Source of the DNA: Acidobacteriota bacterium
GTDB lineage: Bacteria; Acidobacteriota; UBA890; WLXD01
Assembly (NCBI GenBank): GCA_965205505.1
Contig: CBDBHB010000005.1
Location: 1-64,000 of the forward strand
DNA: 64,000 bases
Reading direction: 5' to 3'
In this document: piece after piece, positions 8,248-34,426 of the stretch
Layout of the letters: each line of letters opens with the position of its first letter
Position numbering within the stretch: the stretch's first letter is position 1
The notes under the pieces: generated by a model
The model's input: only the letters and a program-made list of their open reading frames with translations
Told to the model about the DNA's origin: nothing
Databases searched by the model: none
Made by a program: the position numbers and the translations under genes

Positions 8248-9402
8248 ATGGTCCCTCAACGCGAGATCGCGGTGCTCACAAGCCAACGGCGTCGGTACGC
8301 ACTGGTCACGATGATCGCGGTCCTGGTGACCTCTGCGTTGGGCGTTCCGGCAGCGGGCGCGGCGCGACCGAAGCGCCTGGACGACGATCAGCTGATCTTG
8401 CTGCGCGAGGCCATGCAGCTCGTGCGCGCGGTCGGCGACGATGTATGGGTCGGCTGGGCTGGGATTCCGAAGACGACGCTGATCATCGCTCCAGATCGCG
8501 AGTATCTCGTCAACCTTCCCCGTGAGTCCGAATCGCCGCCGAATTTTGTGCTGACCGATCAGAAGTTCATGGGAGAGCCTGTCTATTCGCGCCAGCGAAC
8601 GCTATCCAGCGCCCTTCGCGCCGCGTTCCCGATCGGCGGCGTCCCGGTTGCAGTGATTGGAGCTTGGCGTGCCGATGTGGAGTCGCCCAATGAGTGGGTA
8701 GTCGGATTGGTCGAGCAGTGGTTTCATCTGCTGCAGCTGTACAGGGGTGAGCAAGCGAAGGTTGCGGAGCTGGGCCTCGGCGCGAGCCACCAGCCCTCCT
8801 GGCAGATCAACTTCTCGTTTCCCTTCGACGATCCCGACGTCGGCAACGCGATGTTGCTGTTGGGTCAGTCGCTCTACGATTTCTGGACCACTGGCGCAAG
8901 CCTGCCGCGTGCTGCGCAGCGCGCGTTCCTCGCCGCCACTGCCTCCGCGGCGCTGCAGAACCTCCGTGTCGTCATCACGCTCAAGCACGGCAAGCAGGCG
9001 TACGAGTACTTCCGTCTCCAGACCTGGCGCACCGGCGTAGCTCGCTACAGCAGCATTCTGGCGGCGCGGGCAGTGGCACGGGCCGAGGTCCTCGATGAGT
9101 ACAAGTGCGCGGCCGGCTTCGACCGGCTCGAGCGCCACAAGTCGTATGCGGCTCTGTGGGAGGAGGACCTCTCCCGCCGGTTCTGGCTGATCCGCACCGC
9201 AGGCCTCGAGGGCGAGCGCGATCGCATGTCGTTCGACGCCCTCGGGCACGGCATCGCCGAGCTGCTCGACGTGCTTGGCTTCGATTGGAAAAAGAGTTAT
9301 TTCGATAGTGGTGTCTGGCTCGATGACCTGGTCGCCACCAGCATGGCGCAGGACATCAGCGACACTCCCAAACGCGCCAGCGCCCGTCGCCAGAACCACT
9401 AG
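8248..9402 (+). CDS. Secreted protein, zinc-peptidase-like with degenerate HExxH (start uncertain)
   Basis: Signal-like hydrophobic segment. EQWFHLLQ at the HExFHxxQ position and WRTGVARY at the WxEGxARY position. Confidence 0.55.
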   Translation: MVPQREIAVLTSQRRRYALVTMIAVLVTSALGVPAAGAARPKRLDDDQLILLREAMQLVRAVGDDVWVGWAGIPKTTLIIAPDREYLVNLPRESESPPNFVLTDQKFMGEPVYSRQRTLSSALRAAFPIGGVPVAVIGAWRADVESPNEWVVGLVEQWFHLLQLYRGEQAKVAELGLGASHQPSWQINFSFPFDDPDVGNAMLLLGQSLYDFWTTGASLPRAAQRAFLAATASAALQNLRVVITLKHGKQAYEYFRLQTWRTGVARYSSILAARAVARAEVLDEYKCAAGFDRLERHKSYAALWEEDLSRRFWLIRTAGLEGERDRMSFDALGHGIAELLDVLGFDWKKSYFDSGVWLDDLVATSMAQDISDTPKRASARRQNH

Positions 9403-9418
9403 TGCTGCGGCCTGCTAG
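9399..9418. repeat. MITE-end remnant between convergent stop codons
   Basis: CTAGTGCTGCGGCCTGCTAG: each CTAG supplies a TAG stop, and CGGCCTG-CTAG equals the MITE right end. Confidence 0.45.
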
Positions 9419-9948
9419 ATCACGTTGCGACCAGAACGGCTGGTCGCCCCCAGAAAGCGCTGGATCGACTCCGGCGAGCGACCCGCTTCGCGCAGGTGCC
9501 AGGCACGAGAGAGCCTCAGGGTATTCACGTTCACGGCGGTGCTGATACCGGCCCCCTTGACGCTGGCACCGAGGATCTGCCGCACTTCCTGCACTCGGAT
9601 TCGGCGTGGTCGATTCCCTAAGAACAGCGCTTGAGTTTGCTGCTCGTCCGATCCGTGTTGTGCCAAAATGAGGCGCCGTGCGGAATGTTTGTATGCGTCG
9701 ACGATCTGCCCTAACTCAGGCTCCAGATCGATGCGCCGCATGCCGTCGCCCCCCCTCAAGATGATCTGTTGACGTCGCAACTGCAGATCGCCGAGGTTCA
9801 GGTTGCTGATTTCGATGGCAGTGGCTGCAGCGTAGAACATGGTCGCCAGCACCGCGACGTCGCGAAGGCCGAAACGATCATCGCGGTCTCCGTGCGCAAG
9901 CAGGCACTCTACCTCTTCGGTAGACAAGACCTGTACGGGCACGTCCAT
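9415..9948 (-). CDS. XerD-like tyrosine recombinase catalytic domain, apparently inactive
   Basis: LSTEEVECLL, GLRD, ALFL, AGI, TLRxS-x3-HL and IQRFLG follow the XerD layout, but R/K/H/H/Y are replaced and there is no N-terminal core-binding domain. RBS GGAG before ATG 9948. Confidence 0.7.
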   Translation of the reverse strand: MDVPVQVLSTEEVECLLAHGDRDDRFGLRDVAVLATMFYAAATAIEISNLNLGDLQLRRQQIILRGGDGMRRIDLEPELGQIVDAYKHSARRLILAQHGSDEQQTQALFLGNRPRRIRVQEVRQILGASVKGAGISTAVNVNTLRLSRAWHLREAGRSPESIQRFLGATSRSGRNVI

Positions 9949-10113
9949 GACGTCGGCTCCGAGTGAGCAGTGTGGGGTGCGACAAACCGTTCCGGGGGCA
10001 AGTTGGATGGCACTACCTGTGGCGAACAACAAATTTTACCATGTGGTACATAGAGCATCGGTCGTAACGCATCGTGGGCGGTAACGGTGCCGCCCCTGGT
10101 AAGGAGAATGCGT

Positions 10114-10599
10114 ATGTCTGCCGAGCCGGCAGAGGTCGCCCCCGCGAACGCATTCGACCATCCGGACCTGAGCCGCCAGTGGGTCCTGCGACGACTGCAG
10201 CGCGCGCTCACGGCCGATCTTGCCGCTGCCGCGTTATTGAGCGGCCTCGCGGCTAGCGTCCAGACACGCCACCGGGCCCTTCTGACGGACCTTGCCAACG
10301 GCACCTCGGCACGTGCTGAGGAGCTCCGTCGCCTCATCGTCGAGCTCGGTAGTGCACCCTATTCATCGATTGGCTTGGGGCGAAAGCTCTCGACAACAGG
10401 CGGCTACGTGCTGGGTTGGGCCGGCACCGCGCTCTGGCGCCCTTGTATCCGGCGCCTCGCTACGCACATGCTCTCGGAATACGACCTGCTCATCAGCCTG
10501 GCCGAGGGAGCTGGCGGAGTGGATCCGCTGCTCGTGGAACGGCTACGCCCCCTGCTAGCGTCGGCCCGCTGCCAACACGACTCGCTGGAGCCACGATGA
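10114..10599 (+). CDS. Ferritin-like (Coq7/rubrerythrin-like) helical protein lacking di-iron ligands
   Basis: RBS AAGGAG; four-helix spacing with L..LI.ELG..P and GYVLG; no ExxH motifs; ATGA-coupled to queC. Confidence 0.5.
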   Translation: MSAEPAEVAPANAFDHPDLSRQWVLRRLQRALTADLAAAALLSGLAASVQTRHRALLTDLANGTSARAEELRRLIVELGSAPYSSIGLGRKLSTTGGYVLGWAGTALWRPCIRRLATHMLSEYDLLISLAEGAGGVDPLLVERLRPLLASARCQHDSLEPR

Positions 10600-11387
10600 A
10601 CGAAGCGCGTCGACGATCGGCCGGCCTTGCGCCAGGAGCAGGCGCCGAGACCACCCCCGAAGTTGAGACTGCCAGCAGCCCGAATCGATTGGGCCTCGAC
10701 CAACGCCGCGCCGCGGTGGTGTTGCTCTCCGGAGGGTTGGATTCGGCCACCGCTCTGGCCGTAGCAGTGTCGCAGGGCTATGACTGCAACGCGCTAACGA
10801 TCGACTACGGACAGCGGCATCGCGTTGAAATCGATCGAGCCCGCTCAATCGCCCTGTTCATGGCCGTTCCGCATCGCACGGTCCAAGTCGACCTGGCAGC
10901 CTTCGGTGGATCGGCGCTCACCGACGAGATCCCGGTGCCTCACCCGAAGTCGGAGGCGGAGATCGAGTCCCGCGTCCCCAGTACATACGTCCCGGCACGC
11001 AACACGGTCTTTCTGTCCCTAGCGCTCGCCTGGGCCGAGACCCTGGACGCCCGCGATCTGTTCATCGGCGCCAACGTGCTCGACTATTCGGGCTATCCGG
11101 ATTGTCGGCCCGAGTTCCTCGAGGCGTTCGAGATCGTCGCCAACCTCGGCACCTGCGCAGGCAGCGAGGCGGGGGCGCAGTTCAAGATCCACGCGCCGTT
11201 GCTGCAGTCGACCAAGGCAGAGATCATCGAACGAGGGGCCGAGCTAGGCGTACCATTCCAGCTGACACATTCCTGCTACGATCCGAGCTCGCAGGGCTTG
11301 GCCTGCGGCCTTTGCGACGCTTGTATTTTGCGACGTCGAGGTTTCCAGCGGGCCCGCGTCGAAGACCCCACCCCGTACGCCAGCTGA
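10596..11387 (+). CDS. queC: 7-cyano-7-deazaguanine synthase
   Basis: LLSGGLDS, YGQRH, TYVPARN, DYSGYPDCR, SCY...CGLCDAC. Confidence 0.95.
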   Translation: MNEARRRSAGLAPGAGAETTPEVETASSPNRLGLDQRRAAVVLLSGGLDSATALAVAVSQGYDCNALTIDYGQRHRVEIDRARSIALFMAVPHRTVQVDLAAFGGSALTDEIPVPHPKSEAEIESRVPSTYVPARNTVFLSLALAWAETLDARDLFIGANVLDYSGYPDCRPEFLEAFEIVANLGTCAGSEAGAQFKIHAPLLQSTKAEIIERGAELGVPFQLTHSCYDPSSQGLACGLCDACILRRRGFQRARVEDPTPYAS

Positions 11388-11397
11388 GCAAGCGCTC

Positions 11398-12072
11398 GTG
11401 CCATCGTCGAGATCCGCCGAACCGTCGACGCAGACGGTTACCATCAACGAGATCTTCGTCTCCATCCAGGGCGAGTCGACCTGGGCCGGGAAACCGTGCG
11501 TGTTCCTTCGCACCACCGGATGTCCTCTCCGCTGCCATTGGTGCGACACCGAGTACGCATTTCACGAGGGCACGTCCTGGAGCGTCGACGCGCTGGTCGA
11601 GGAGGCCTGCCGGCACGGTATTCCGTTGGTCGAGATTACCGGCGGCGAGCCACTCGTTCAGCCGGGGGTGCCAGCACTGGCGGCACGCCTGCTGGAACGC
11701 GGGAAAACAGTGCTGGTGGAAACCTCGGGAGCCTTCGACATCTCGGTTCTTCCCCCGGGAGTCAAGCGCATTGTCGATCTCAAGTGCCCTGGATCGGGCG
11801 AGTGTGATCGCAACGAGCTGCAGAACCTCGCACGCCTACGCGACGGCGATGAGATCAAATTTGTGATCGCCGATCGAGTCGACTACGAGTGGGCGGTGTC
11901 GATGCTCCGCCAACACGGGTTTGCAGACCGCTATCCGGTGCTTTTCGCGCCAGTATCGAACCAGTTGCAACCATCCACTTTGGCCGCCTGGATCATCGAG
12001 GACGAGCTACCGGTGACCCTCCAGCTACAGCTGCACAAGGTGATCTGGCCGGGCGTGGAGCGTGGCATCTGA
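11398..12072 (+). CDS. queE: 7-carboxy-7-deazaguanine synthase (radical SAM)
   Basis: EIFVSIQGE, CPLRCHWCDT, ITGGEP, ETSG, LQLHK. Confidence 0.93.
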   Translation: MPSSRSAEPSTQTVTINEIFVSIQGESTWAGKPCVFLRTTGCPLRCHWCDTEYAFHEGTSWSVDALVEEACRHGIPLVEITGGEPLVQPGVPALAARLLERGKTVLVETSGAFDISVLPPGVKRIVDLKCPGSGECDRNELQNLARLRDGDEIKFVIADRVDYEWAVSMLRQHGFADRYPVLFAPVSNQLQPSTLAAWIIEDELPVTLQLQLHKVIWPGVERGI

Positions 12073-12473
12073 TGGCCGAGCAACAGCCGCGCGTCGAGCT
12101 GAGCACAACCTTCCGCATCGAGGCCTCACACGTCTTGCCGAAGGCTCCGGCAACCAGCGTCTGTAGACGTTTGCACGGCCACTCGTGGCAGCTCGACATC
12201 GCTGTTGCCGGCGAGATCGACCCCACCGTTGGATGGCTTATCGACTATCACGACATCGAGGCAGCCTGGGAGCCGATTCACGAGGCTCTGGACCACCGCC
12301 ATCTCAATGACGTTGACGGTTTGGAAAACCCCACGAGCGAGTTGCTTGCGGTATGGATCTGGGACCGGCTGGCACCCCGACTGGCGGGGCTGTTCCGCGT
12401 AACCGTGCACGAGACGTGTACTGCCCGCTGTACTTATCTTGGTCCGGGCGGACGACAGGGGGTAGGTGTGTGA
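12072..12473 (+). CDS. queD: 6-carboxytetrahydropterin synthase
   Basis: EASH, CRRLHGHS, LDHRHLND, ENPTSE, VHET; TGATG coupling to queE. Confidence 0.93.
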   Translation: MAEQQPRVELSTTFRIEASHVLPKAPATSVCRRLHGHSWQLDIAVAGEIDPTVGWLIDYHDIEAAWEPIHEALDHRHLNDVDGLENPTSELLAVWIWDRLAPRLAGLFRVTVHETCTARCTYLGPGGRQGVGV

Positions 12474-12904
12474 GTGAGCAGTCGGAAGAGAGCTTCGCGG
12501 CCGACGAAGGCTATACCGACGAACACGCCACGGCTGGACTCGATGCGTCCATGCCCGATCTAGCGACGTTTCCCAACCAGTTCGCGGGCTACTCGATCCT
12601 CATCGAGCATCCGGAGTTCACCTCGATCTGCCCCAAGACAAGCCTGCCCGATTTCGGCACCGTCTGCATCGAGTACGAGCCGGATGCCGAATGCCTCGAG
12701 CTGAAGGCATTGAAGCTCTACCTGAACGGCTACCGCAACGTCGGCATCTTCCAGGAGAATGTCGTGAATCGCGTGTTGCGTGATGTAGTAGCTGCCTGCG
12801 CGCCGATCAGGTGTGAGGTCAGCGGCGAGTTCGCGCCGCGCGGAGGCCTCAGCACTACCGTGACCGCTCGCTACGAACGCGACGCGGAAAACGGGGCTCG
12901 GTAG
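12470..12904 (+). CDS. queF: NADPH-dependent preQ0 reductase (type I)
   Basis: PEFTSICPKT-x-LPDFG, ELKALKLYL, GIFQE, PRGG; GTGA coupling to queD. Confidence 0.93.
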   Translation: MSEQSEESFAADEGYTDEHATAGLDASMPDLATFPNQFAGYSILIEHPEFTSICPKTSLPDFGTVCIEYEPDAECLELKALKLYLNGYRNVGIFQENVVNRVLRDVVAACAPIRCEVSGEFAPRGGLSTTVTARYERDAENGAR

Positions 12905-12916
12905 TAGGAATCCGGG

Positions 12917-13861
12917 TTACGGACGCAGAACCGCTTCGATCTTCGGTAGCGCCGCCAAGACCACAGCACCGACAACCTGAAACGAGCTCGCATCTAGCTT
13001 GTCCAGGGTATCGAACGGCGAGTGCCAGTAGCGGTTGCCAGGCCCGTAGTTGAAATCGATCAGATCGATTGCGTCCACACCGGCTTCAAGAAACGGCAGG
13101 TGGTCGTCGAGAATCTGATGGTACGTGTTGGGGAAGCTCGCCTCGTGGCCAAGCTCGCGGGCACTACTCCAGACGATGTCGGTGAGCCAAGCTGTCGACG
13201 CCATTTCCCGAGATATGGCCAGATCTTTGTCGCCGATCATGTCGAAGAGGATCATCGCGCCGATGCGATCGAGAGTTCCGTCCCGAGAGAATCGCTCGAC
13301 GAGATGGCGGGAGCCGTAGGTACTATCGTCGGCGGTCCACTGCTCCACCGCTTCTTCTCCGTCGAAGAACACCAGCCACACCGGGAGGCCAAGCGGCTCG
13401 GCTAGCAACGCCGGAGCGAGCGCCAGCAGCATTGCGGCGCTGGATGCGCCGTCGTTTGCTCCGACGAACTCGACTCCATCGAACCGCTTGGTGTCGTAGT
13501 GTCCGGCAAGCAGAACGATGGGCCCGTCCGGGGACCCATCGGGGGTGCCGCCACGTGCCGGAATCTCGACGAGGATGTTGGCCATCGCCGATGGGCCAAG
13601 TGGGGTGTCGGCGGTGAACTCGTCGCGCCACGGTGTCAGGCCAAGAGCCTCGAGTTGCTCTTCTATGTAGACGCGGTTCGCCTCCAACGCCTCGCTGTTG
13701 AGCGGTCGCGGGCCGAGCGCCACCATCGCCGCCGCGTGCGCGAGCGCCCGTTCGCCATCGACTACCGCGGCTTGCGGCGCCGGCGAAAACGCCGCAGCCA
13801 TCAGCGCCGCCATGATCAGGTAAGACAATCCCGTACCACCCTGCCGACGCCCGAAGCTCAT
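12917..13861 (-). CDS. M28-family zinc enzyme, animal-type glutaminyl cyclase-like, secreted
   Basis: HYDTK, GANDGASS, FFDGEEA, YGSRH, FDMIG, DDHLPFL, YWHS-x2-DT, plus a signal peptide. Confidence 0.75.
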   Translation of the reverse strand: MSFGRRQGGTGLSYLIMAALMAAAFSPAPQAAVVDGERALAHAAAMVALGPRPLNSEALEANRVYIEEQLEALGLTPWRDEFTADTPLGPSAMANILVEIPARGGTPDGSPDGPIVLLAGHYDTKRFDGVEFVGANDGASSAAMLLALAPALLAEPLGLPVWLVFFDGEEAVEQWTADDSTYGSRHLVERFSRDGTLDRIGAMILFDMIGDKDLAISREMASTAWLTDIVWSSARELGHEASFPNTYHQILDDHLPFLEAGVDAIDLIDFNYGPGNRYWHSPFDTLDKLDASSFQVVGAVVLAALPKIEAVLRP

Positions 13862-13942
13862 CCGTTACCTCCGCTTACCCGTGCCCGTCCCTGACGGGCA
13901 CCGGCGATGTGATGAACGGTTACGGTATCCCTAGTGTCCTAG

Positions 13943-14212
13943 CAGGCCGAGGTGGAAGTGTGGTGGGTCTGGTTACGGCGAGTTGGGGCCAGATGCAAGG
14001 CGGCCTGACACTGGCGATGCCCTAGCCATCGTCGAGGAAGGCCAACGCCGCAGATGGCCCCAAATCGCCGTAACCCTCCGGGCGACAGGGGGTTGCGCGC
14101 GTATGCTGCGTCGTTCCTCGTCCACGATGGGGTTACCATCGCCTCCTCCTCTCTCCTTGCCTCCATTCGCAAGACCCTGTCGCCAGACCCACCGCACTTT
14201 CACCACGGCCTG
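13943..14212. mobile_element. MITE copy A (270 bp, 30-bp TIRs, CTAG flanks)
   Basis: TIRs match 27/30; CTAG at 13939-13942 and 14213-14216. Manual alignment to the reverse complement of 59131-59401 gives 12 substitutions and 1 indel. Confidence 0.85.
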
Positions 14213-14287
14213 CTAGCAGGCCGTGGTGGAATCCTAACCGCACAGCAGAACGAGCGCTCGCCCGGAGCGCGCTGCGAACGCTCATCA

Positions 14288-15292
14288 ATGTCGCTTGAAG
14301 GTCTCGAACGTACGTTCCAGCCCGCCTTCTTCGTACGTGGTGGGCATCGCCAGACCATGTGGGCAAACTATGCGCCGCGAGCCTCCAGCGCCGCAGCCCT
14401 GGCACGCGTCGCCGAACCGACGCAGCTGCCGACACCTGACGGCGACCGCTTGCGGGTGCATTGGAACCGCGTGAAACCCGCGGCGCCAGCCGTTCTCGTA
14501 GTGCTGCACGGGCTTACCGGGTGCGCGGCCTCGCCGCAGGTGGTCGGAATCGCGGCCAAGGGATTGGAGCGCGGCTTCGATGTGGTGCGCGTCGACCTGC
14601 GCAACGCCTCTGGAGACACCCCAAGCACCGAGATCGGCCATGCAGGTCGCTCCGAAGACGTCCGAGCCGTCCTTGACCACGTCATCGACCGGGCGCCTAG
14701 GGCTGCGATCTGCGTCATCGGCTACTCGCTTGGCGGCAACATCGCCCTCAAGGCTCTTGGCGAGCTGCATCGCAACGCCCCAGAGCAGCTGCGTGGTGTC
14801 GCGACAATCTCGGTGCCGATCGATCTCGACGCCGCCTGCCGGCGCATCGATGCCGCAACCAACTTCGTGTACCGCGCGTACTTCGTACGGCGTCTGCTTA
14901 GCGTGGTCGCCCAGCGCGCCAAGCGAGTGCCTGAGCGGTATGAGCAAATCAACCTGGACGGAGTCCACACGATCCGAGGCTTCGACGAGGCCGTTGTCGC
15001 CCCACTCGGGGGCTTCGGCAACGCCGCCGATTACTATCAGCGGTGCAGCGCCCTGCGGTTCATCGAGGCGATACGTGTCCCAACGCTGCTCATCCAGGCG
15101 CGAGACGATCCCTTCATCCCGTTCGATGCTTATCGCGACCCACGAATCGGGTCGAACGACGCGGTAACACTGCTAGCGACGGCTCTTGGCGGTCACGCCG
15201 GCTTCTACGGCTCGTCACGGCGTGATCGGGATGCCTTCTGGGCCGAGAATCGCGCCGTTGACTTCTGCGCCGCAGCGGCCGATCTTGCCTGA
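14288..15292 (+). CDS. YheT-family alpha/beta hydrolase
   Basis: GGHRQT, LHGLTG, GYSLGGN, ARDDPFI, GGHAGF. Confidence 0.85.
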   Translation: MSLEGLERTFQPAFFVRGGHRQTMWANYAPRASSAAALARVAEPTQLPTPDGDRLRVHWNRVKPAAPAVLVVLHGLTGCAASPQVVGIAAKGLERGFDVVRVDLRNASGDTPSTEIGHAGRSEDVRAVLDHVIDRAPRAAICVIGYSLGGNIALKALGELHRNAPEQLRGVATISVPIDLDAACRRIDAATNFVYRAYFVRRLLSVVAQRAKRVPERYEQINLDGVHTIRGFDEAVVAPLGGFGNAADYYQRCSALRFIEAIRVPTLLIQARDDPFIPFDAYRDPRIGSNDAVTLLATALGGHAGFYGSSRRDRDAFWAENRAVDFCAAAADLA

Positions 15293-15306
15293 CAACGATC
15301 CCTTGA

Positions 15307-15786
15307 TCACGCCTGCTGGGACCGTGCTCCACGCTCTGAGCTGGCGCCGCCGGCCGCGGCCAGAGCCACACCGTATCCACGCTCGCCGCCGTCGCCAGCT
15401 TCGATCGGCAGGCCGGCAGCCTCCCAGCCGGGCACCAGCAATCGCCCGGCCGGATCACGCTTGCCGTTGAACCCCGCGTCGACGTTGAGCACGTGCGTAA
15501 ACCCGACCCGGCTAAGCAGATTTCCGGCGTGTAGCGATCGCATCCCGGTTGCACAGCCGCACAGGACCGTGACGTCGCGCTCGAGCACGGCATCAACTAC
15601 ACGGACAAACTCCGGATTGGGCATCATCATGCCGGTCACCGGGCTTGGCAGCGCATACGGAACGTTCCAGGCGCCCAACGGGTGCCCACGCTCGAACTCT
15701 TCGACCGTGCGAACGTCGAGATATACGGCCTCGCCTTGCCGCTCAAGGGTATCGGCGGCCGCCTTTATGGAGATCTCTTCGATCAT
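15307..15786 (-). CDS. Rhodanese-like sulfurtransferase
   Basis: YLDVRTVEEF-x2-GHP-x-GA, active-site CATGMRS, GW-x2-AGLP. Confidence 0.85.
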   Translation of the reverse strand: MIEEISIKAAADTLERQGEAVYLDVRTVEEFERGHPLGAWNVPYALPSPVTGMMMPNPEFVRVVDAVLERDVTVLCGCATGMRSLHAGNLLSRVGFTHVLNVDAGFNGKRDPAGRLLVPGWEAAGLPIEAGDGGERGYGVALAAAGGASSERGARSQQA

Positions 15787-15888
15787 GGCCCCTCACTGCG
15801 AGCAGACACTACTTCCCGGCAGGACACTAGTATGATGGATCCTCGACGCTTTCGCCGGCCATCCTGAGGTCCGGCAGGAGTTGGCTCG

Positions 15889-16197
15889 ATGAGCGACATC
15901 CCAACGCCGGAAGACAAGACGCACGAGATCAGCTGCCCGTGCTGTGCTACCAAGCTCACCGTTGACGCGGCTTCCGGGGCGATCTTGTTCGAGGAACGGC
16001 CCAAGCGCCGTTCGGCGACATGGGACGATGCATTGGCTGCCGGGAAACGCCAGCAGGAAGCTGCCGTGCGACAGTTCGAGCAAGGCATCGAGCGTGAGCT
16101 GAACGCGGACCAGATACTCGAGAAAAAATTCCGCGAGGCTCTCAAACGAACCGACAAGAGCGGCTCCCCGCCTCCTCGTATTTTCGATCTCGATTGA
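15889..16197 (+). CDS. Small CPCC zinc-ribbon/coiled-coil hypothetical protein
   Basis: RBS AGGAG; CPCC motif; LEKKFREAL...PP-x-RIFDLD C-terminus; overlaps the dacB start. Confidence 0.65.
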   Translation: MSDIPTPEDKTHEISCPCCATKLTVDAASGAILFEERPKRRSATWDDALAAGKRQQEAAVRQFEQGIERELNADQILEKKFREALKRTDKSGSPPPRIFDLD

Positions 16198-17534
16198 GTC
16201 GCCACCGAGCAGTTACCGGCGCGCTTTTGGCAAGCCTCGCCGTCACAGGCGCGGCAGCGGCACAAACGGGATCGGGGAACAGCGCCACGCCTGCACCCTT
16301 CGTCGACATGCCCGCGAGCGTCGCACGGTTCCTGGAACATCCATCGTTGGCAGGCGCCCGCGTCGGTATTCAAGCGGCCGTTCTATCCACTGGCGAGCTT
16401 CTCCTGTCACATCGTGCCGACGAGCTCTTCGCTCCCGCCTCGGTGACCAAGCTGTTCACCACTGCCGCGGCACTGTCGCGACTTGGAGCACACTTCGTGT
16501 GGCGGACGCCGTTGGCGTATGCCGGCACCCGCCGCGGTGACAGCATCGACGGCGATCTATGGGTGCTCGGCCGAGGCGCTCCCGATCTGGTCGAAGAGCG
16601 ACTCTGGATCGCGGCGAATCGGCTTGCCGAGAATGGCCTCGTGGGCATCACCGGCGACATCGTTGTCGACGATCGCTACTTCGACGCGGAACGCTACGGC
16701 AATGGCTGGCCCGGCGGACGCCAAGTACGCGAAGCTTACCATGCCGCAATCAGCGCGTCGATGGCCAACTTCAGCGCCCGCCGTATCGACAACAACTGGG
16801 CTGCGGTCGACGATCCAGCGCTCTACCTCGGAGAACGCCTGGAGGACCTGCTGGGCAAAGCCGGCGTTGCGCTCGGTGGCACGGCTCGCCGACCCAACCC
16901 CGAGGAGCTGGTGCGGATTCCCGGACCGGTGTTCGACGGCACCGACCTGGGCCGACCGTCGGTACCGCCGTCATTGACGTGGCTTTACGACATCGAGTCC
17001 GAACCGCTCGGACGGCTCGTCATGGACGTGAACAAGTTCAGCAACAACATCATGGCCGAGTCGGTGCTGAAGACACTCGGTGCGGTGGAATATGCGGCGC
17101 CCGGCACGGCGACCAAGGGACTCGCGGTGGTGGCGCGATTCCTGCAGGACGAGCTCGATCTGCCTGTCAACTCCTACGTTCAAGCGGATGGGTCGGGACT
17201 CTCGAACCTGAATCGTTTCGCACCGTCGCAAGTGGTCGAGCTGCTGACTCGCGCTCAGCGCGACTTTCACATCGGTCCGGAGCTCCTCGCCTCACTGAAG
17301 CTGTCAGGACTCGATGGCTGGAACCCGGCGCCCTTCCGCCACGAACCTCTACGAGGTGAGCTGCGGGTCAAGTCCGGGCACATTCGCGGCGTCAATACGC
17401 TCAGCGGTTTGGTTCACACGGATAGCGGCAAGACGCTCGTCTTCTGCGCCATGGTCAACGACCATCATGCCCAGCAATGGGAAATCGACCAGCGTATGGC
17501 AGAGATCGCCGCCGTTCTGATGCGCATGTACTAG
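16194..17534 (+). CDS. dacB: D-Ala-D-Ala carboxypeptidase/endopeptidase PBP4 (S13)
   Basis: SxxK (PASVTK), SxN (KFSNN), DGSGLS, KSG, LSG. Confidence 0.88.
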   Translation: MSRHRAVTGALLASLAVTGAAAAQTGSGNSATPAPFVDMPASVARFLEHPSLAGARVGIQAAVLSTGELLLSHRADELFAPASVTKLFTTAAALSRLGAHFVWRTPLAYAGTRRGDSIDGDLWVLGRGAPDLVEERLWIAANRLAENGLVGITGDIVVDDRYFDAERYGNGWPGGRQVREAYHAAISASMANFSARRIDNNWAAVDDPALYLGERLEDLLGKAGVALGGTARRPNPEELVRIPGPVFDGTDLGRPSVPPSLTWLYDIESEPLGRLVMDVNKFSNNIMAESVLKTLGAVEYAAPGTATKGLAVVARFLQDELDLPVNSYVQADGSGLSNLNRFAPSQVVELLTRAQRDFHIGPELLASLKLSGLDGWNPAPFRHEPLRGELRVKSGHIRGVNTLSGLVHTDSGKTLVFCAMVNDHHAQQWEIDQRMAEIAAVLMRMY

Positions 17535-25418: not shown

Positions 25419-26594
25419 ATGTTCAGCCCTGACCAGCCCTTCTTCGCGCCCATCCTGCTGCCCTCGGACCGTGAAGCGCTCGCGGACTCGCCACCTCAGC
25501 ATGCCGCAGTGCTGTCGATCAGCTACGCCATGAACCCACGCAACGCCGCCTTGTTCGAATTGGCAAGGGGCCGGGCTGAGCAGCTCCTGGTAGACCCGCG
25601 GACGGCCTCGTTCCAGTTCGAGGGCTACCTGAGCATGGAAGACTATCGCAAGGTCCCGTACAGCCCGGGCAAGCTCACCCTCGGCTCTTTGTGGGAGCCG
25701 CGTGACTTCGCAACGCGCGAGCAACGAGCTCGCCTGATCGAGCCCGTGTGTACGGCGCAGGCCGCAGTGGGTGCCAGCATCCTGATCGCGCCATACGTGC
25801 TCGTGTCGGATGTGACGCACCCCTGGCTACCGATCGCCGTCGACCTGGCTGGCGAGGCCCTGGCGTGCAACCGCCGCCACCCGATGGCGGTAGCGGTCTG
25901 CGTGGATATCGACGCGGTGCTCACGGCGGCGCAGCGAGCCGTCCTGTGCGACGGCTTTGGTCAGCTCGAACCCGAATTGCTCCTGCTGACAGTAGTCAAC
26001 TTCGACGAGGTCGAGGCGAGCCCCGAGGAGGCTCTGGCGGTCATCGACCTCATCAAGCGCCTTGGCTCCGGCGGCGTCCCGGTGGTGCTGATGTACGCTG
26101 GCCGGGCTGGTCTCTCGACGATCGCCGCCGGTGCGGCCGGGTATGCGGGCGGTGGATTGGAGCTGGAATCACACCCGAAGCGCTACTTCCGCGAGGGACT
26201 CGTGAACCTGCACGCCAACAGCTACTACCTGCCGGGTTGCATGCTGCGGCTACCGGTGCGACTCGCAGACGCCATCGCGCGACGCGTACCGGAGGCGCTC
26301 GGGACCGACGAGGGTCTCCCCGCGGCCAAGGTGTATCGCCAGCGGTTGACCGCCGCGCTGACGGCGAAGCACGCCGAGGTGCGGGCGCTTGCTGAGCTCG
26401 AGGATACGGCGCGAATCAGCTGGCTGCGGGCCCGGTTGGACACCGCGCTCGAAGTTTGCGAACGTGCCCGTACAGCGCTCGACGATGGCTCTGGCAAGTT
26501 ACAGCTGTCGGGTGGAGCTTTTCACTATCTCGAGGTGCTCCGAGAGGTCGCCGGCGGCCCGGCGGCTCAACGCCCCGAGCATCCCGACTTTTGA
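25419..26594 (+). CDS. Hypothetical beta/alpha-barrel protein, tentatively TGT-like
   Basis: Intact 391-aa ORF with alternating beta/alpha pattern: LLVDP-x-T, Q-x3-GA-x2-LIAPY, GL-x3-AAGA-x-G. The fold call is from recollection only. Confidence 0.5.
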   Translation: MFSPDQPFFAPILLPSDREALADSPPQHAAVLSISYAMNPRNAALFELARGRAEQLLVDPRTASFQFEGYLSMEDYRKVPYSPGKLTLGSLWEPRDFATREQRARLIEPVCTAQAAVGASILIAPYVLVSDVTHPWLPIAVDLAGEALACNRRHPMAVAVCVDIDAVLTAAQRAVLCDGFGQLEPELLLLTVVNFDEVEASPEEALAVIDLIKRLGSGGVPVVLMYAGRAGLSTIAAGAAGYAGGGLELESHPKRYFREGLVNLHANSYYLPGCMLRLPVRLADAIARRVPEALGTDEGLPAAKVYRQRLTAALTAKHAEVRALAELEDTARISWLRARLDTALEVCERARTALDDGSGKLQLSGGAFHYLEVLREVAGGPAAQRPEHPDF

Positions 26595-26595
26595 C

Positions 26596-26826
26596 TCAGA
26601 CTGCTTCGAGGTCGGCGAGCGGACCGACAGAATCGAACCGCAAGTCGCACGCTTGGCGTCTCCCTGTATCGGGGCAGTACACGCCGCAGCTATCAAAGGG
26701 ACGCGAGTACACGTGCAGGCTCACGGCAGGTTCCTGCCACTCGGCCAGGTTGCCGATGCGGTGCACGCAAGCACAGCGGTCCAGGTAGAGGTCATCACCG
26801 TCGCCCCCGACGATCGCGTCATGCAA
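26596..26826 (-). pseudogene. C-terminal fragment of a cysteine dioxygenase-like cupin
   Basis: VHRIGN...PAVSLHVYSRPFDSC motif present. The N-terminal HxH half is missing, and the upstream frame reaches a stop within about 40 codons. Confidence 0.6.
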
Positions 26827-26933
26827 CAGCCGAGGTGGCCTGGCGCAGCCATCGCTCGCTGCGCTGAGCGGCCGCCCGGCGACCGCCTGTGCGATGATCT
26901 GCCGGGTCGTGCAAGCGCAAGAAGGAGGTTGTG

Positions 26934-27457
26934 GTGGCGTTTATCAGTGTCATCGGTGAGGAGGAAGCCACCGGTCTGTTGCGGCGCGAGTACGACGCCG
27001 CACTAGAGCGTGCGGGGAAGGTCTTCAACGTTGTCAAGATCCAGAGCGTGCGACCGCGCGTGCTCCGTTCCGGTATCGCCCTGTACTCGCAGATCATGCA
27101 CGGTGAATCTGAGCTGACGCGCGCCGAGCGTGAGATGATCGCTGTGGTTGTCTCACAGGTGAACGACTGCCACTACTGAGTGCGCTCTCACGCTGACGAC
27201 CTCCGTGCCGAGGTCGACGATCCAGGGCTCGTCGAGGCAATCGAGCGCGATTGGCAGAGCGCGCCGCCACCCTGTGCGCACATGCCGTCAAGCTCACCCA
27301 AGACCCGGCGAGCATCGGCGAGCCGGACATGGGCCGCCTGCGGGAGGCCGGCTGTACCGACGGCGCGATCCACGACCTGACCCAGGTAGCGGGGTTCTTT
27401 GCCTACTACAACCGTCTCGCCGACGGCTTGGGTATCGATCCCGAGCCCGACTGGTGA
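26934..27457 (+). CDS. AhpD/carboxymuconolactone decarboxylase-like peroxidase, predicted selenoprotein (CxxU); later frameshift near 27265
   Basis: RBS AGGAGG. EREMIAVVVSQVNDCHY-TGA(27177-27179)-VRSH continues in frame; C-terminal AVKLT...YYNRLADGLG lies in another frame. Confidence 0.75.
27197..27216 (+). promoter_or_regulatory. Candidate bacterial SECIS hairpin
   Basis: Stem CGACCTC/GAGGTCG with loop CGTGCC (GU at loop positions 2-3); 24 nt separate the UGA from the loop. Confidence 0.6.
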
Positions 27458-27473
27458 TCAACTCCGTCGACGT

Positions 27474-29561: not shown

Positions 29562-29658
29562 TTGAAGCCTCCTCACAGGAGCGGGGATACAGCGCGCAAA
29601 ACCACGGACCACACGACCACGTTCAACGTTACCCAGCGACCGGTTGACAAGGAAGTTG

Positions 29659-30189: not shown

Positions 30190-30220
30190 GGTACCTGCTC
30201 TCCCGGGGGGTCCCCCATAG

Positions 30221-30260
30221 CAGGCCGTGATGGAAATGTGGCGGACCTGGTTACGGCCTG
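30221..30260. mobile_element. 40-bp minimal derivative of the MITE
   Basis: CAGGCCGT...ACGGCCTG flanked by ATAG and CTAG; the interior resembles the first 36 bp of copy A. Confidence 0.6.
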
Positions 30261-30522
30261 CTAGGTCGATACACGGTAGCAAAGCCGAGTAGGCTGCTCA
30301 ATAGAGTCGCCGTTAGTACCGTCCATGGTCGCCGGTGCGGGATCGGTCCGAGCGATTCCGACTAGTGGTCTGTAACAGATGATCGTTGCATATTGCTGGG
30401 CCGAGATTGCCCCCGTATCGGCCCAGCCTTCCGGGTGGCGGCGGGGCCGGCCGCCTCCGGCGCCACTATTTGTGGGGCGCAGCACTAGAATAAGCATACC
30501 TGCCGCTAACGACAGAGCCGAC

Positions 30523-31911
30523 ATGACCGAACCAAACGACATCCCTGAGTTCGTCGCAGCGCGGCGCGAGGAGTGGCTCGCGGAGCTCAGCGAATTTCTG
30601 CGTATCCCGAGCGTGTCCACGGACCGCGAGCACGATGGCGACGTTCGTGCCGCCGCCGACTGGCTCGCGGTGCGCCTTACCAATGCCGGAGCAACTGAGG
30701 TAGAAGTCTGGGACACCGCCGGCCACCCGGTAGTGTACGGAGCTTGGCGCGGCGCCGTAGGAGCTCCCACTGTACTGGTATACGGCCACTACGACGTACA
30801 GCCGGCCGACCCCGCCGAGGAGTGGACTAGCCCACCGTTCGAGCCCATCGTACGCGGCAACAAGATCGTCGGCCGCGGCACCGCCGACGACAAGGGCCAG
30901 CTCTATGTCCACATCAAGTCGCTGCAGGCCTGGCTCGAGACCCGCGGAACCTGCCCGGTGAACATCGTCTATTTGATCGAGGGTGAAGAGGAGGTCGGAT
31001 CACCGAACGTCGACACGGTGGTGCGAGAACGCCTCGAGCAGCTCCGCTGCGACGCCGTCATGGTCTCGGATACGACGATGTTCGCCCCCGGCCTCCCCAC
31101 CCTCTGCAATGGACTGCGCGGGGTCGCCTATCTACAAATCGACCTCCGCGGCCCGAATCGTGATCTGCACTCGGGCATGTTCGGCGGAGCGGTCATCAAT
31201 CCCGCCGAGACTCTGGCGCAGATGCTAGCCGCCTGCCGCGACGAGCGCGGTCGCGTGACCATACCCGGCTTCTATGACGATGTCGCCGAGGTGCCGGCCG
31301 ACGAGCGCAAAGATTGGGCAAAACTACCCTTCGACAACGACGCCTACGTCTCCGAGTTGGAAGTCGACGCGTTGCTCGACACCGGTGGGTTCAGCATCCT
31401 GGAGTCGTTGTGGGCGCGGCCGACCTTCGACGTCAATGGCCTGCTATCGGGGTTCACCGGTGAAGGCAGCAAGACGGTACTCCCAGCGACCGCCATGGCC
31501 AAGGTGTCGATGCGGCTGGTCGCCGACCAGGATCCCGACAAGATCGCCGATGCGTTCGAGGCGTACATGCGCGAGATCGTCCCTCCGGGCGTGACGATAC
31601 GGATCACGCGCATGCACGGTGGTAAGCCCTGGTCGGCGCCGCGCGAGCATCCGATCCTGCAAGCCGCAGCACGGGCGCTTCAGCGCGGGTTCGGAGCCGA
31701 GACCGTGTTCGTGCGGGAGGGCGGGTCGATTCCCCTGATCTCGACACTCGAGGAGCTCTTTCAGGTGCCCACCGTCATGATGGGACTCGGGCTGCCGGAC
31801 GAGAACGCACATGGTCCCGATGAGAACCTCGATTTGGACAATTTCTTCTCCGGGATCATCAGCTCGGCGTTTTTTTTCGAGGAGCTCGCCAGGTGTGAGC
31901 TTGACGGGTAG
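30523..31911 (+). CDS. M20 family dipeptidase
   Basis: YGHYDVQP, GRGTADDKGQ, EGEEEVGS, DLHSG, GGSIP, NAHGPDEN. Confidence 0.9.
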   Translation: MTEPNDIPEFVAARREEWLAELSEFLRIPSVSTDREHDGDVRAAADWLAVRLTNAGATEVEVWDTAGHPVVYGAWRGAVGAPTVLVYGHYDVQPADPAEEWTSPPFEPIVRGNKIVGRGTADDKGQLYVHIKSLQAWLETRGTCPVNIVYLIEGEEEVGSPNVDTVVRERLEQLRCDAVMVSDTTMFAPGLPTLCNGLRGVAYLQIDLRGPNRDLHSGMFGGAVINPAETLAQMLAACRDERGRVTIPGFYDDVAEVPADERKDWAKLPFDNDAYVSELEVDALLDTGGFSILESLWARPTFDVNGLLSGFTGEGSKTVLPATAMAKVSMRLVADQDPDKIADAFEAYMREIVPPGVTIRITRMHGGKPWSAPREHPILQAAARALQRGFGAETVFVREGGSIPLISTLEELFQVPTVMMGLGLPDENAHGPDENLDLDNFFSGIISSAFFFEELARCELDG

Positions 31912-31920
31912 GCGGCTCAG

Positions 31921-32280
31921 ATGAAACGCAAGGACTTCCTGCAGCGCATGCGCAACCGTCGTCGACGTGACGAGCTCGAGCTGCGAGAGCCCGTGCGGCG
32001 ACGGGCGATCGACTGGCGGACGCTCCGCGTCGAGCTGCCGGACGACGACGATTCCGGCGATCAACAAGCCCTGTCAATCGGCACCCTCGAGCTGCTCCCG
32101 GCTGGCATCCGGCTACGTCCGACCGAGGCGTGCTGGGTTCGCGGCTACCGCGTGTGGCGTGACGACGAGGGCCAGGGACGGGCCGAATTCCAGTACCGCC
32201 CGGTGGCCGCCGACAGTGAGCCACCGCCCGGCGCCAAGGCGTTGGGCGCCGACGAGGAGTGGGCGCCCGAGCCGCGCTAG
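31921..32280 (+). CDS. Hypothetical protein
   Basis: ATG 10 bp after the M20 stop, coding-like codon bias; no motif recognised. Confidence 0.5.
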   Translation: MKRKDFLQRMRNRRRRDELELREPVRRRAIDWRTLRVELPDDDDSGDQQALSIGTLELLPAGIRLRPTEACWVRGYRVWRDDEGQGRAEFQYRPVAADSEPPPGAKALGADEEWAPEPR

Positions 32281-32326
32281 CCAGTCGCGAGGGCTTCCAG
32301 GCGGGCACGTCGGCACGAGATAGGCT

Positions 32327-33040
32327 CTACGGCTTGCGATACAACCGCATGTGGAAGCGACGTGTCCACCGCTCCTGCGCGGCTGCGTCGACGAAGTCGA
32401 AACGGCTCGCCGCCGCCAGGCCCAGGCCTGTACCAAAGACCGCGTCGAGCTCCCTCCCCCGGAACAACTGGTTGCGAATGCCGGTGTTAGGATCCTCGAC
32501 TACACCCGTCCGCGGCCACGGTGAGGCGTCGAGAAACCGCCGATAGTAGCCATCATCGAGATCAAAGGTCACCACCGCGAACAGCCCGCCTGGCCGGAGC
32601 ACGCGTGCGACCTCGGCGCCGTAGCTGCGCTGTGCCTCCGGTTGCACGAGGTTGTCGATGGCGGTGATATCGAGCACCGTACCCACCGACTCGTCGGCCA
32701 GCGGCAAGGGCTCTCGCAGGTCGTGGCGTATCGAGACAATGCGATCGGCTACGGCCTCGGCGCGGGCGCGGGCGCGGAACTGCGACAGCGCCGCCACGGC
32801 ATGATCGAGACCGATGACGCGATATCCGGCCCGTGCTAGCGGGATCGCGTTGCGACCTCTTCCGCAGGCACACTCGAGCACCGGCCCCGAGACCCCCCCG
32901 CTGGCCGCGGCGAATCCGAGCAGGAACTCGACCCCCCGGTCGAGCTCGTCCCGATACGAGGTGGTATAGGCGCGAACTTCGACGTACTCGCGCTCCCAGG
33001 CCGAGCGCGCGTCACCCGGCTCAGGCGTTGAGGAAGACAC
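32327..33040 (-). CDS. Class I SAM-dependent methyltransferase
   Basis: VLECACGRGRN, VIGLD, LPLADESV, RVLRPGG. Confidence 0.8.
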   Translation of the reverse strand: MSSSTPEPGDARSAWEREYVEVRAYTTSYRDELDRGVEFLLGFAAASGGVSGPVLECACGRGRNAIPLARAGYRVIGLDHAVAALSQFRARARAEAVADRIVSIRHDLREPLPLADESVGTVLDITAIDNLVQPEAQRSYGAEVARVLRPGGLFAVVTFDLDDGYYRRFLDASPWPRTGVVEDPNTGIRNQLFRGRELDAVFGTGLGLAAASRFDFVDAAAQERWTRRFHMRLYRKP

Positions 33041-34040
33041 CGCTGGGATCCTGATCCGGTGCCAGGTTCCCTGCGGGTCGGCTGTAGTGAAACGTCGCCG
33101 CAAGAGCATCGCGGTCGCTCGGAGCGGCACGACCGGCGGGATTCAGGATCGATTCCGTCGAGGGCGAGACGACATAGCCGCCGAGCGAGTGCGCGAACAT
33201 CCGGTTGAAGAACTCGATTGTGGAGCCCACGCCGCAGGCGACGATCACCTTGCTGATATCGGAACCGTTGCTCACCGAGCCAATGTGCTCACTGCTGAAA
33301 CGCATGTCCGCCCGCTGGACGATCACGAGCCGGCCGCGCGGTACCCGCGACAGGCTCGTCGGGGCCGAGCCCGAGCGTACTTCGATTTGCGGCAGCCCCA
33401 GTCGATTGCCGGTCAGCGTACCGAACAGCGCCAGGATCGAGCCTCGCATGGCATCGATGCGAGCCTCGGTGACGATCTCCTTGTCGGAGCCGACAAGCCC
33501 GCGATAGATCTGCACCACCGGGGTCGTGGTCCAGCGGTTGGTCGCCCCGGGCGTGCGCGGCGCGACGCCCTCCTTGTCCGGACCGGCGCCGCGCGCGTAC
33601 TGGTTGATGAAGTTCATTGGTAACCCGGCACCTTCCTCCAGCAAGGTCGGGTTAACGGCGACGTTCCCCCGCACGCGCAGACGCCCTACGCGCTTGTGGT
33701 GCCCCGTGCCCTTGAGCTCGACATCGTAGTCGCCAGTCTCCTCCACACGGATCTCGAAGTTACCTCGAGCATCGGCCTGGATGGGCTTGAATCCGGCGAG
33801 CTTGACAACGCCGTCGACAACCACGTCACCGTTCAGTAGGCCGGTCAGCTGCCCGCTAATGGTGCCACCCTGCTGCAGTATCTGTGGGCTGGTGCTCAGG
33901 TCGACCAGGTCGTCCGCAGGCCGCTGCTTGCAGCCCACCAGGCCGAGCCCGACGGCCCCGGCCCCCATCATCCCTGCGCGCCGCATCAAGTCACGGCGGG
34001 TCATTGCCTCCTGCCTACGCCGGAGGTCATCGTTCGTCAT
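33021..34040 (-). CDS. Tat lipoprotein with carboxypeptidase-regulatory-like domain and degenerate metzincin-like domain
   Basis: TRRDLM twin-Arg, LVGC lipobox, DARGNFEI; RMFAHSLG at the HExxHxxG position. Confidence 0.6.
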   Translation of the reverse strand: MTNDDLRRRQEAMTRRDLMRRAGMMGAGAVGLGLVGCKQRPADDLVDLSTSPQILQQGGTISGQLTGLLNGDVVVDGVVKLAGFKPIQADARGNFEIRVEETGDYDVELKGTGHHKRVGRLRVRGNVAVNPTLLEEGAGLPMNFINQYARGAGPDKEGVAPRTPGATNRWTTTPVVQIYRGLVGSDKEIVTEARIDAMRGSILALFGTLTGNRLGLPQIEVRSGSAPTSLSRVPRGRLVIVQRADMRFSSEHIGSVSNGSDISKVIVACGVGSTIEFFNRMFAHSLGGYVVSPSTESILNPAGRAAPSDRDALAATFHYSRPAGNLAPDQDPSGVFLNA

Positions 34041-34426
34041 TCGATCGGTGGGGGGTTGGACATTGCCTTACGGATCCGATGACCCCTCTTGGGGAGTCTG
34101 AGCTCGGAATTACGAACACGGCCGAACCCCTCGTTGTACAGGGGCTTGTAGCGACGAATCTCGTCCTCGGCCGCCGCTTCTGCGGCGGCTGCACCGTCGG
34201 CCAGCGAGTACTCGAGCCGCGAGATTCCGGCAACGGGGGCAGCCCCGCAAACCTCGCGCACGGCCTCACGCAACCCCTGTTCTCCCGCGTGTCCGACATA
34301 CATCACTCGCTGTCCGGAGGAGCGCAGACGGAAGACTGCCGCCGTCTCCGGGAGACCATCGATAACGCCCGGAGTGAGCTCGAGTAGGCCAGAGTCGAGG
34401 GGAGATTCACTGGAAGGATAGCTCAC
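34037..34426 (-). CDS. Stand-alone GIY-YIG (UvrC N-terminal-like) domain, apparently inactive
   Basis: LPETAAVF...VMYVGHA..LREAV...I-x4-PLYN follows UvrC spacing. Confidence 0.6.
   Translation of the reverse strand: MSYPSSESPLDSGLLELTPGVIDGLPETAAVFRLRSSGQRVMYVGHAGEQGLREAVREVCGAAPVAGISRLEYSLADGAAAAEAAAEDEIRRYKPLYNEGFGRVRNSELRLPKRGHRIRKAMSNPPPIE

Follow-up and report, generated by a model that had tools for sequence, protein, structure and literature searches.

The 64,000-nucleotide stretch analyzed here (the window; positions 1 to 64,000 of contig CBDBHB010000005.1, assembly GCA_965205505.1, from an Acidobacteriota bacterium) carries between positions 8,248 and 34,426 six open reading frames, ORF1 to ORF6, which a reading of the sequence alone had proposed to be intact pseudoenzymes recurrently domesticated by this lineage. 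Our analysis indicates that these are probably six unrelated, vertically inherited and order-specific genes in a conserved syntenic stretch, each a divergent offshoot of a superfamily, and not one system. At least four of them, ORF1, ORF2, ORF5 and ORF6, are pseudoenzyme candidates, combining homology to an enzyme with specific replacements at catalytic or metal-binding positions, fixed among the orthologs or, for ORF1, within its clade. We read the set as two pseudo-peptidases, one recombinase domain and one GIY-YIG domain, both dead, and a remodelled tRNA-guanine transglycosylase (TGT), and nothing points to a novel type of system; the apparent recurrence of dead enzymes arises because it is the hypothetical proteins of a single region that were read. 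Many enzyme families are known to include pseudoenzymes (PMC10211241). All six genes lie where the sequence-only reading had placed them:

8248..9402, + strand: ORF1, 384 amino acids from the 8248 start; exported or N-terminally anchored; zincin fold, with EQWFH instead of HExxH
9415..9948, - strand: ORF2, 177 amino acids; stand-alone tyrosine-recombinase catalytic domain that lacks both the N-terminal domain and the catalytic Tyr
10114..10599, + strand: ORF3, 161 amino acids; weak ferritin-like leads as to fold; directly 5' of queC
25419..26594, + strand: ORF4, 391 amino acids; TGT-superfamily triosephosphate isomerase (TIM) barrel, unseen by PF01702 and without the CxCxxC zinc motif
33021..34040, - strand: ORF5, 339 amino acids; twin-arginine translocation (Tat) signal lipoprotein that joins a CarboxypepD_reg-like beta-sandwich to a matrixin-like domain with a degenerate zinc motif
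34037..34426, - strand: ORF6, 129 amino acids; GIY-YIG-like domain with the metal-binding Glu changed to Ala, then a conserved basic tail

The lengths of ORF2, ORF3, ORF4 and ORF6 are those of the gene calls on the public record, while the starts of ORF1 (8161, 8200 or 8248) and ORF5 (34040, or a Met 12 codons further in) are uncertain. Among the six, Pfam and NCBIfam recognize only ORF2 and, below threshold, the N-terminal CarboxypepD_reg-like domain of ORF5, and the public names of close homologs are hypothetical proteins of Acidobacteriota, nothing more specific. Standard profiles leave the six as hypothetical proteins because each is very divergent from its known superfamily; motif reading of the raw sequence reached beyond this annotation and recovered remote homologies that both databases missed. 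This defines five protein families that are undescribed and restricted to the order, and whose ancestry is clear. Orthologs were sought with each protein in the host genome (G000; 6.0 Mb, 9 contigs) and 40 related genomes; the counts below are out of 10 genomes of family f1 and 15 of family f2, the two families of the window's Acidobacteriota order, and 15 other families of the phylum were sampled as well.

Four proteins with replaced catalytic or metal-binding residues

ORF2, which had been called XerD-like, is a Xer-like catalytic domain that lacks five of the six catalytic residues. Pfam Phage_integrase recognizes the window protein (E 1.4e-10) and PF00589 matches all 19 orthologs (best E 5.9e-20), while the NCBIfam XerD model scores 78 bits against a cut-off of 329.6. 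The ORF2 profile aligns with Escherichia coli XerD (1a0p; E 4.2e-13) from about XerD residue 111 on, and no N-terminal core-binding domain is present. Reading the catalytic columns (R-K-H-R-H/W-Y) from this alignment, in which the residue number is the chain index plus 2, we found the Arg247 equivalent in 19/19 sequences and the other five in 0/19. The Arg148 equivalent is Thr (16) or Asn (3), that of Lys172 is never Lys, that of His244 is Asn (15), Val (3) or Ser (1), and that of His270 is Ala (17) or Thr (2); the Tyr279 position, here the last residue of the protein, is Ile (10) or Val (9). Such a domain should be unable to form a phosphotyrosine link, and it may act as a DNA binder. Weaker ORF2 hits in the related genomes are without exception in open frames at least as long as a normal Xer gene, mostly 300-410 amino acids, and two Xer-like genes in normal-length open frames occur elsewhere in G000.

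A comparable use of a tyrosine-recombinase domain is found in TnsF of Tn6022-like transposons, where an inactivated domain serves as a DNA target selector (PMC10293859). The likeness would lie in the loss of catalysis and the keeping of the domain, apparently for DNA recognition, as we propose for ORF2. Unlike TnsF, ORF2 is a stand-alone protein of 177 amino acids with no N-terminal domain, is chromosomal and vertically inherited, and has no transposon genes nearby. As a separate observation, the PDB chain 9i5v_14 (401 residues, deposited as ribosome-associated translation inhibitor RaiA) matches ORF2 profile positions 10-90 (E 1.4e-7), and may hold another recombinase-like domain in an unexpected protein.

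The GIY-YIG call for ORF6 also held. A profile of its 22 orthologs matches the GIY-YIG domain of UvrC (1yd6, E 1.2e-7; 1ycz, E 0.0032), Pfam GIY-YIG profiles searched with the single sequence were not significant, and at a threshold of E 1 the Pfam family DUF7508 matches 21 of the 22 members (best E 2.6e-6). The position aligned with Glu76 of Thermotoga maritima UvrC, the metal-binding residue, is Ala in 19 sequences and Asn, Thr and Lys in one each, and is acidic in none of the 22. As in UvrC, the active-site Arg and Asn are invariant (equivalents of Arg39 and Asn88, 22/22 each) and most sequences retain the second Tyr (Tyr 16, Phe 3, Leu 2, Ser 1), while the first is kept in part (Phe 12, Tyr 9, Leu 1). 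ORF6 departs from UvrC in this Glu to Ala change, in its length of only 129 amino acids, in its resemblance to DUF7508, in the absence of other UvrC domains and in the conserved basic tail that follows the domain. Loss of the Glu together with the basic tail suggests a protein that would bind nucleic acid without cutting it.

ORF5, the metzincin-like protein of the sequence-only reading, proved to be a homolog of Peptidase_M10 (PF00413) without His1, Glu and His3 of the zinc motif. Its N-terminal sequence (TRRDLMRRAG...LVGC) combines a twin-arginine motif with a lipobox, the CarboxypepD_reg-like domain is present in 14/15 orthologs, and a profile search of the PDB with ORF5 matched the N-terminal beta-sandwich only. 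A profile of the C-terminal domain (208 positions), searched against 1.84 billion representatives, returned 259 hits at E up to 0.001, of which 7 reach 1e-30 or better. All ten remote homologs tested match Peptidase_M10 at E 0.0027 or better, four of them above the 24-bit cut-off, and all ten have the CarboxypepD_reg-like domain as well. Alignment by hhalign with 15 acidobacterial M10 domains gave P 7.9e-5 from the motif to the Met-turn, with 12 controls at 0.099 or above, and an Atlas lead agrees with the matrixin-like call.

The zinc motif HExxHxxGxxH is present in 80 of 149 aligned stretches, taken from the 150 matches listed, and in 0/7 of the closest relatives of ORF5, which instead have KM/RM/KFxxHxxGxx(G/V/D) or RVxxQ. 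In the window protein it reads RMFAHSLGGYV, and the Met-turn position is Leu, as in 7 of the 15 orthologs (Met in 6, Val in 2). ORF5 shares with matrixin-like bacterial lipoproteins its two-domain architecture and a conserved motif near the C-terminus, Y-x-R-P-x-G-N-x-x-P-D-x-D-P, and is unlike them in the altered zinc motif and in the Met to Leu change at the Met-turn in the genus. Its matrixin-like domain would be unable to hold a catalytic zinc, and the protein, as a Tat-exported lipoprotein, may act as an envelope binding module. In the wider matrixin-like family (P0187-P0329), 28 of the 149 stretches have Arg for the first zinc His with the other two His kept, a variant that looks recurrent.

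For ORF1, which had been read as zinc peptidase-like, the fold assignment comes from structure. The AlphaFold2 (AF2) model (76-sequence alignment; predicted local distance difference test, pLDDT, 89.9) runs from a hydrophobic N-terminal helix through a six-stranded sheet and the motif helix (147-165) to a helical domain. In a wide VIA search with this model, 39 of the 50 rows listed were titled zinc metallopeptidases, including aminopeptidase N, leukotriene A4 hydrolase, M32 carboxypeptidases, thermolysin, collagenases, angiotensin-converting enzyme and neprilysin, and two more were TFIID. The best match had Z 9.7 and a root-mean-square deviation (rmsd) of 3.9 over 185 residues, a moderate score in a consistent picture. 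Foldseek gave no matches to the model at E up to 0.001, a PDB profile search gave only myroilysin (E 0.46), nothing relevant emerged when all ORF1 orthologs were compared with Pfam at E up to 1, and the homolog search found same-clade members only, without Pfam domains. ORF1 resembles M1-type and other gluzincins, including the non-catalytic M1-like fold in TFIID (6hqa, 5fur), in its beta-sheet subdomain, motif helix and helical subdomain, and its sister-clade orthologs hold HExxH on the same helix. It is unlike the M1 gluzincins in belonging to no Pfam family, in matching at Z 9.7 or less, in having EQWFH and an N-terminal signal or anchor, and in lacking the other M1 domains.

HExxH is kept in 35 of the 76 aligned ORF1 homologs (HEWFH 34, HEIFH 1) and absent from 41 (EQWFH 31, EQWFR 4, QQWFH 2, EQWFQ 1, EQWFK 1, REWFH 2). 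In a quick IQ-TREE run with Shimodaira-Hasegawa-like approximate likelihood ratio test (SH-aLRT) support, the 39 (E/Q)QxxX sequences form one clade (SH-aLRT 99), whose sister group comprises the 34 HEWFH sequences and one REWFH sequence, and the outlier P0179 retains HEIFH. As the (E/Q)Q clade has a single origin and HExxH occurs in both the sister clade and the outlier, the motif was therefore lost once; the ancestor would have had HExxH, with the first His and the catalytic Glu probably lost on the stem of the f1-type clade. The second His is kept in 33 of the 39 (E/Q)Q-type sequences and lost in 6, and the homologs have an invariant GHG and other motifs; E168, E280 and H334 are conserved and are candidate third zinc ligands. 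After the motif loss the clade appears to have diversified under purifying selection, some members evidently losing the second His later.

A TGT-superfamily barrel unseen by sequence profiles

The TGT-like call for ORF4 is likewise carried by the structural model (pLDDT 94.3, predicted template modelling score 0.93, 78-sequence alignment). The model shows a TGT-type (beta/alpha)8 barrel together with its C-terminal extension. The top Foldseek rows are TGT entries (7nq4, E 7.2e-7), and re-alignment with Zymomonas mobilis TGT gave Z 20.8 and rmsd 3.5 over 294 residues. Against 48,161 representatives, VIA ranked the archaeal enzyme ArcTGT (1iq8, Z 20.6), TGT (3unt, 19.5), QTRT2 (16.7), DpdA (15.8) and Cap10 (15.6) first to fifth, followed from rank 6 onward by generic TIM barrels at Z 13.2 or less. 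PF01702 at E up to 1 had no hits in 22 ORF4 orthologs, Pfam as a whole at the same threshold gave nothing relevant, the PDB profile search gave 0 hits, and the homolog search again found same-clade members only, without Pfam domains. Genome-wide, PF01702 marks one canonical tgt per genome, in G000 at C8:226347-227387.

After the barrel, CxCxxC is present in 47/50 f2-type homologs and 0/28 f1-type homologs, and the window protein lacks it. TGT and DpdA have three invariant active-site Asp in common (PMC10164549). Comparison of ORF4 with a 21-sequence TGT alignment by hhalign was not significant (P 0.07), the local pairing placing D59 on the Asp of TDSGG. We take Asp156 and Asp280 of TGT to lie at the ends of barrel strands 4 and 8; by this topology and the strand order of the model, the equivalent ends in ORF4 are predicted to be Pro-Tyr and Gly, with no Asp. 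Seven polar residues are invariant among the 78 homologs (D59, Q66, D165, E197, R258, E259, H369), and those conserved in at least 90% also include D17, E68, R229, E250 and H252. Most of the highly conserved polar residues fall just past the eight predicted barrel strands, and strand ends are the usual place of a TIM-barrel active site, a pattern that suggests a functional pocket in the modelled protein. ORF4 may be an active enzyme, and a re-purposed enzyme or ligand binder is more likely than a dead scaffold. We propose that it represents a new branch of the TGT superfamily that has lost its zinc cluster in the window's clade and retains an invariant polar pocket. With QTRT2 (6fv5), the non-catalytic subunit of the eukaryotic TGT, and with DpdA (7ui4) and Cap10 (9ntn), it has in common a TGT-type barrel and a departure from the tRNA enzyme; it is unlike these in that PF01702 is blind to it, CxCxxC is absent from its clade, and no dpd genes or genes of a cyclic-oligonucleotide-based antiphage signalling system (CBASS) adjoin it.

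The sequence-only reading had named retention of the ligands in close orthologs as a result that would refute it, and ORF1 and ORF4 give this result. The sister family retains HEWFH in ORF1 and the zinc cysteines in ORF4, making the two genes (HEWFH vs EQWFH, CxCxxC vs none) natural experiments in which a sister clade keeps the metal site, and their clade pairs useful for the study of the transition from enzyme to non-enzyme.

Of the alternatives to our interpretation, the one that fares best is that at least one of the six is still an active enzyme, its chemistry altered or its catalytic residues relocated, with ORF4 transglycosylase-like and ORF1 a peptidase or amidase using Glu-x-x-x-His. 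The siting of ORF4's invariant or near-invariant polar residues mostly past the barrel strands speaks for this, as does the weak pairing of D59 with the TDSGG Asp, and in ORF1 the frequent retention of the second His alongside the invariant GHG. Against it, ORF1 has Gln for the catalytic Glu, a classic inactivating change in zincins, and the second His is itself lost in six sequences, ORF4 has no zinc cluster and, by the strand order of the model, would have no Asp where strands 4 and 8 end, and ORF2 has no Tyr for a covalent intermediate. We consider such activity unlikely overall, while regarding it as a possibility to be taken seriously.

ORF3 and the preQ1 synthesis genes

The ferritin-like fold proposed for ORF3 was not confirmed. 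The leads are weak: Atlas feature scores of 0.89-0.92 to COQ7, DUF2383, DUF892 and Ferritin_2 clusters, hhalign P of 0.0083 and 0.0074 against DUF2383 with controls at 0.054 or above, and a profile match to a Dps-like chain (E 0.055). Pfam at E up to 1 on 19 ORF3 members had 0 hits, and the homolog search found same-clade members only, without Pfam domains. Because many ferritin-like families are not enzymes, the term pseudoenzyme is not warranted for ORF3. The fold calls of the sequence-only reading accordingly stand for five of the six proteins (ORF1, ORF2, ORF4, ORF5 and ORF6), and its claim that catalytic or metal residues were replaced stands for ORF1, ORF2, ORF5, ORF6 and the zinc cysteines of ORF4, though the loss of the catalytic aspartates of ORF4 was not confirmed, with ORF3 dropping out of both. 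What ORF3 does have is a conserved place at the head of a gene cluster, which would be the sole hint to its function; it ends 75 bases 5' of queC, with queE, queD and queF next on the same strand. The features of this region are:

10031..10047, + strand: invariant 17-base block in the ORF2-ORF3 intergenic region, from an alignment of four genomes of the genus
10674..12904, + strand: queC, queE, queD and queF (complete preQ1 synthesis cluster; NCBIfam TIGR00364, TIGR04349, TIGR03367 and TIGR03139; Pfam Radical_SAM and QueF)

The 17-base block is invariant across the four genomes even though coding dS (the synonymous substitution rate) is 0.7-1.0 there. It contains a short inverted repeat, ACCA-TG-TGGT, is single copy in the window and the genome, and is not conserved outside the genus; other genera have different conserved blocks in the ORF2-ORF3 spacer, for example TTCCGA...TCGGAA in f2. 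At seed 6, an inverted-repeat search returned 0 pairs in this spacer. No folE was noticed next to the que genes, and Rfam at the gathering threshold had 0 matches in the whole window, hence no preQ1 riboswitch is called.

In a bolder reading, ORF4 would be a sixth functional branch of the transglycosylase superfamily, zinc-free in its clade, that handles a 7-deazaguanine-type base in some substrate other than tRNA position 34; ORF3, heading queCEDF, and the divergent dead recombinase ORF2 would be part of the same 7-deazaguanine regulon. We regard this as a long shot. If true, part of the apparent pseudoenzyme cluster would be an undescribed deazapurine pathway.

Distribution, selection and gene order

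Orthologs of all six genes were found in the two families of the order: ORF1 in 8/10 f1 and 14/15 f2 genomes, ORF2 in 8/10 and 12/15 (E 1e-48 or better), ORF3 in 9/10 and 12/15, ORF4 in 10/10 and 13/15, ORF5 in 9/10 and 5/15, and ORF6 in 10/10 and 13/15. The 15 other sampled families had no orthologs of the six, the exceptions being ordinary full-length Xer paralogs for ORF2 and one weak ORF6 hit (E 8.4e-4). Ratios of non-synonymous to synonymous substitution rates (dN/dS), estimated by the Nei-Gojobori method (NG86) for within-genus pairs, were 0.16-0.17 for ORF1, 0.08-0.10 for ORF2, 0.19-0.22 for ORF3, 0.16-0.20 for ORF4, 0.13-0.19 for ORF5 and 0.09-0.12 for ORF6; family-wide pairs reached 0.38, but with dS above 1 they are saturated. 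With dN/dS below 1 throughout and orthologs without internal stops, the six are real genes under purifying selection and not decaying pseudogenes, in agreement with the earlier view that they are intact and not products of random decay.

Family f1 and no fewer than five f2 genomes share the gene order rsmB-ORF1-ORF2-ORF3-queC. ORF1 and ORF2 are convergent and ORF2 and ORF3 divergent, and for this reason the triad is not one operon. ORF5 and ORF6 are neighbors on one strand in every genome that has both, while eight f2 genomes have ORF6 without ORF5. Losses strike single genes: in G007 ORF1 is cleanly gone between rsmB and ORF2, in G008 it is reduced to a 46-amino-acid remnant, in G005 ORF2 is gone between ORF1 and ORF3, and G015 is likewise without ORF2. 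Two of the six proteins are predicted to be exported (the signals of ORF1 and ORF5) and four to be cytoplasmic, and the predicted complex of ORF5 (residues 45-339) with ORF6 scored 0.02, which weighs neither way.

A joint loss of ORF1, ORF2 and ORF3 in G004 was considered and rejected, as the whole block of at least 17 kb including queC is missing or unassembled there. This genome is the closest sequenced relative; in a comparison of its stretch L166 (G004:C3:158000-177999) with window 1-17280, its synteny with the window begins only at about 17.3 kb, queC is not detectable in it, and the canonical tgt is kept. In f2 genomes (L071-L078), ORF1 and ORF2 are separated by about 1.1 kb, a gap that could hold an additional gene not present in the window.

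The sequence-only reading went further and proposed that this lineage has systematically domesticated dead enzymes, with the six as a connected set of binders, sensors, scaffolds or decoys. Four or five active-site-substituted homologs do lie within 26 kb, they are retained across the order under purifying selection, and both the ORF5/ORF6 adjacency on one strand and the conserved order of ORF1, ORF2 and ORF3 would fit such a set. A linked set is not supported, however: single genes are lost independently (ORF1 in G007, ORF2 in G005 and G015), ORF5 was found in 5/15 and ORF6 in 13/15 f2 genomes, the transcription units differ, and two proteins have export signals where four have none. Nor does inactivation characterize the lineage as a whole, as the sister family has HExxH in ORF1 and CxCxxC in ORF4. 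Co-occurrence within one order weighs little because related genomes are not independent samples, and a syntenic core region passed on vertically would be expected to show the co-occurrence seen here. We find a connected set very improbable.

Several points nevertheless weigh against our preferred reading of six unrelated genes, or against parts of it. Four to six such genes stand among about 56 ORFs, a count that covers the window only, and the rsmB-ORF1-ORF2-ORF3-queC order is kept in both families, leaving room for a local tie, for example ORF2 regulating the divergent ORF3-que genes. For ORF1 the fold match is moderate (Z 9.7) with no Foldseek match, and the Glu of its EQWFH may still bind metal. 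Structure models cover ORF1 and ORF4, and catalytic residues may have been relocated in ORF2, ORF3, ORF5 and ORF6; ORF4 itself may be active or inactive. The zinc sites of ORF1 and ORF4 were moreover lost in the same clade, and a common cause is possible.

Such a cause, for instance zinc sparing, could lie behind the metal-site losses in ORF1 and ORF4 (f1-type clade) and in ORF5: the motifs are present in f2-type sequences and in 0/39 (ORF1) and 0/28 (ORF4) of the f1-type ones, and zinc sites make up three of the six cases. Yet the first two are two events on one long branch, the ORF5 loss is common to f1 and f2 and hence older, and the genome retains many zinc enzymes, among them the nearby M28 and M20 peptidases and the canonical TGT. 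We rate a common cause marginally below the connected set. That the six are decaying pseudogenes or spurious frames, as the 61-68% G+C of the window and its many overlapping spurious ORFs might suggest, can be set aside with near certainty: full-length orthologs without internal stops in up to 23/25 related genomes refute it by conservation, dN/dS is well below 1, the AF2 models of ORF1 and ORF4 are confident, and G+C at third codon positions is 0.74-0.81, typical of genes, for those ORFs that pass the gene filter, where ORF2 and ORF6 are not listed.

Neighboring genes

The six had been described as lying among housekeeping genes, and the neighbors bear this out: a gene for an RsmB-like methyltransferase, queC/E/D/F, genes for M28 and M20 peptidases, beta-oxidation genes, and genes for a TonB receptor and a PBP4-like protein. 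Three further candidate ORFs without an NCBIfam match lie near the six, at 26389-27006 (+), 31921-32280 (+) and 34474-35640 (+), and the last of these has a single match, a borderline one to Laminin_G_3.

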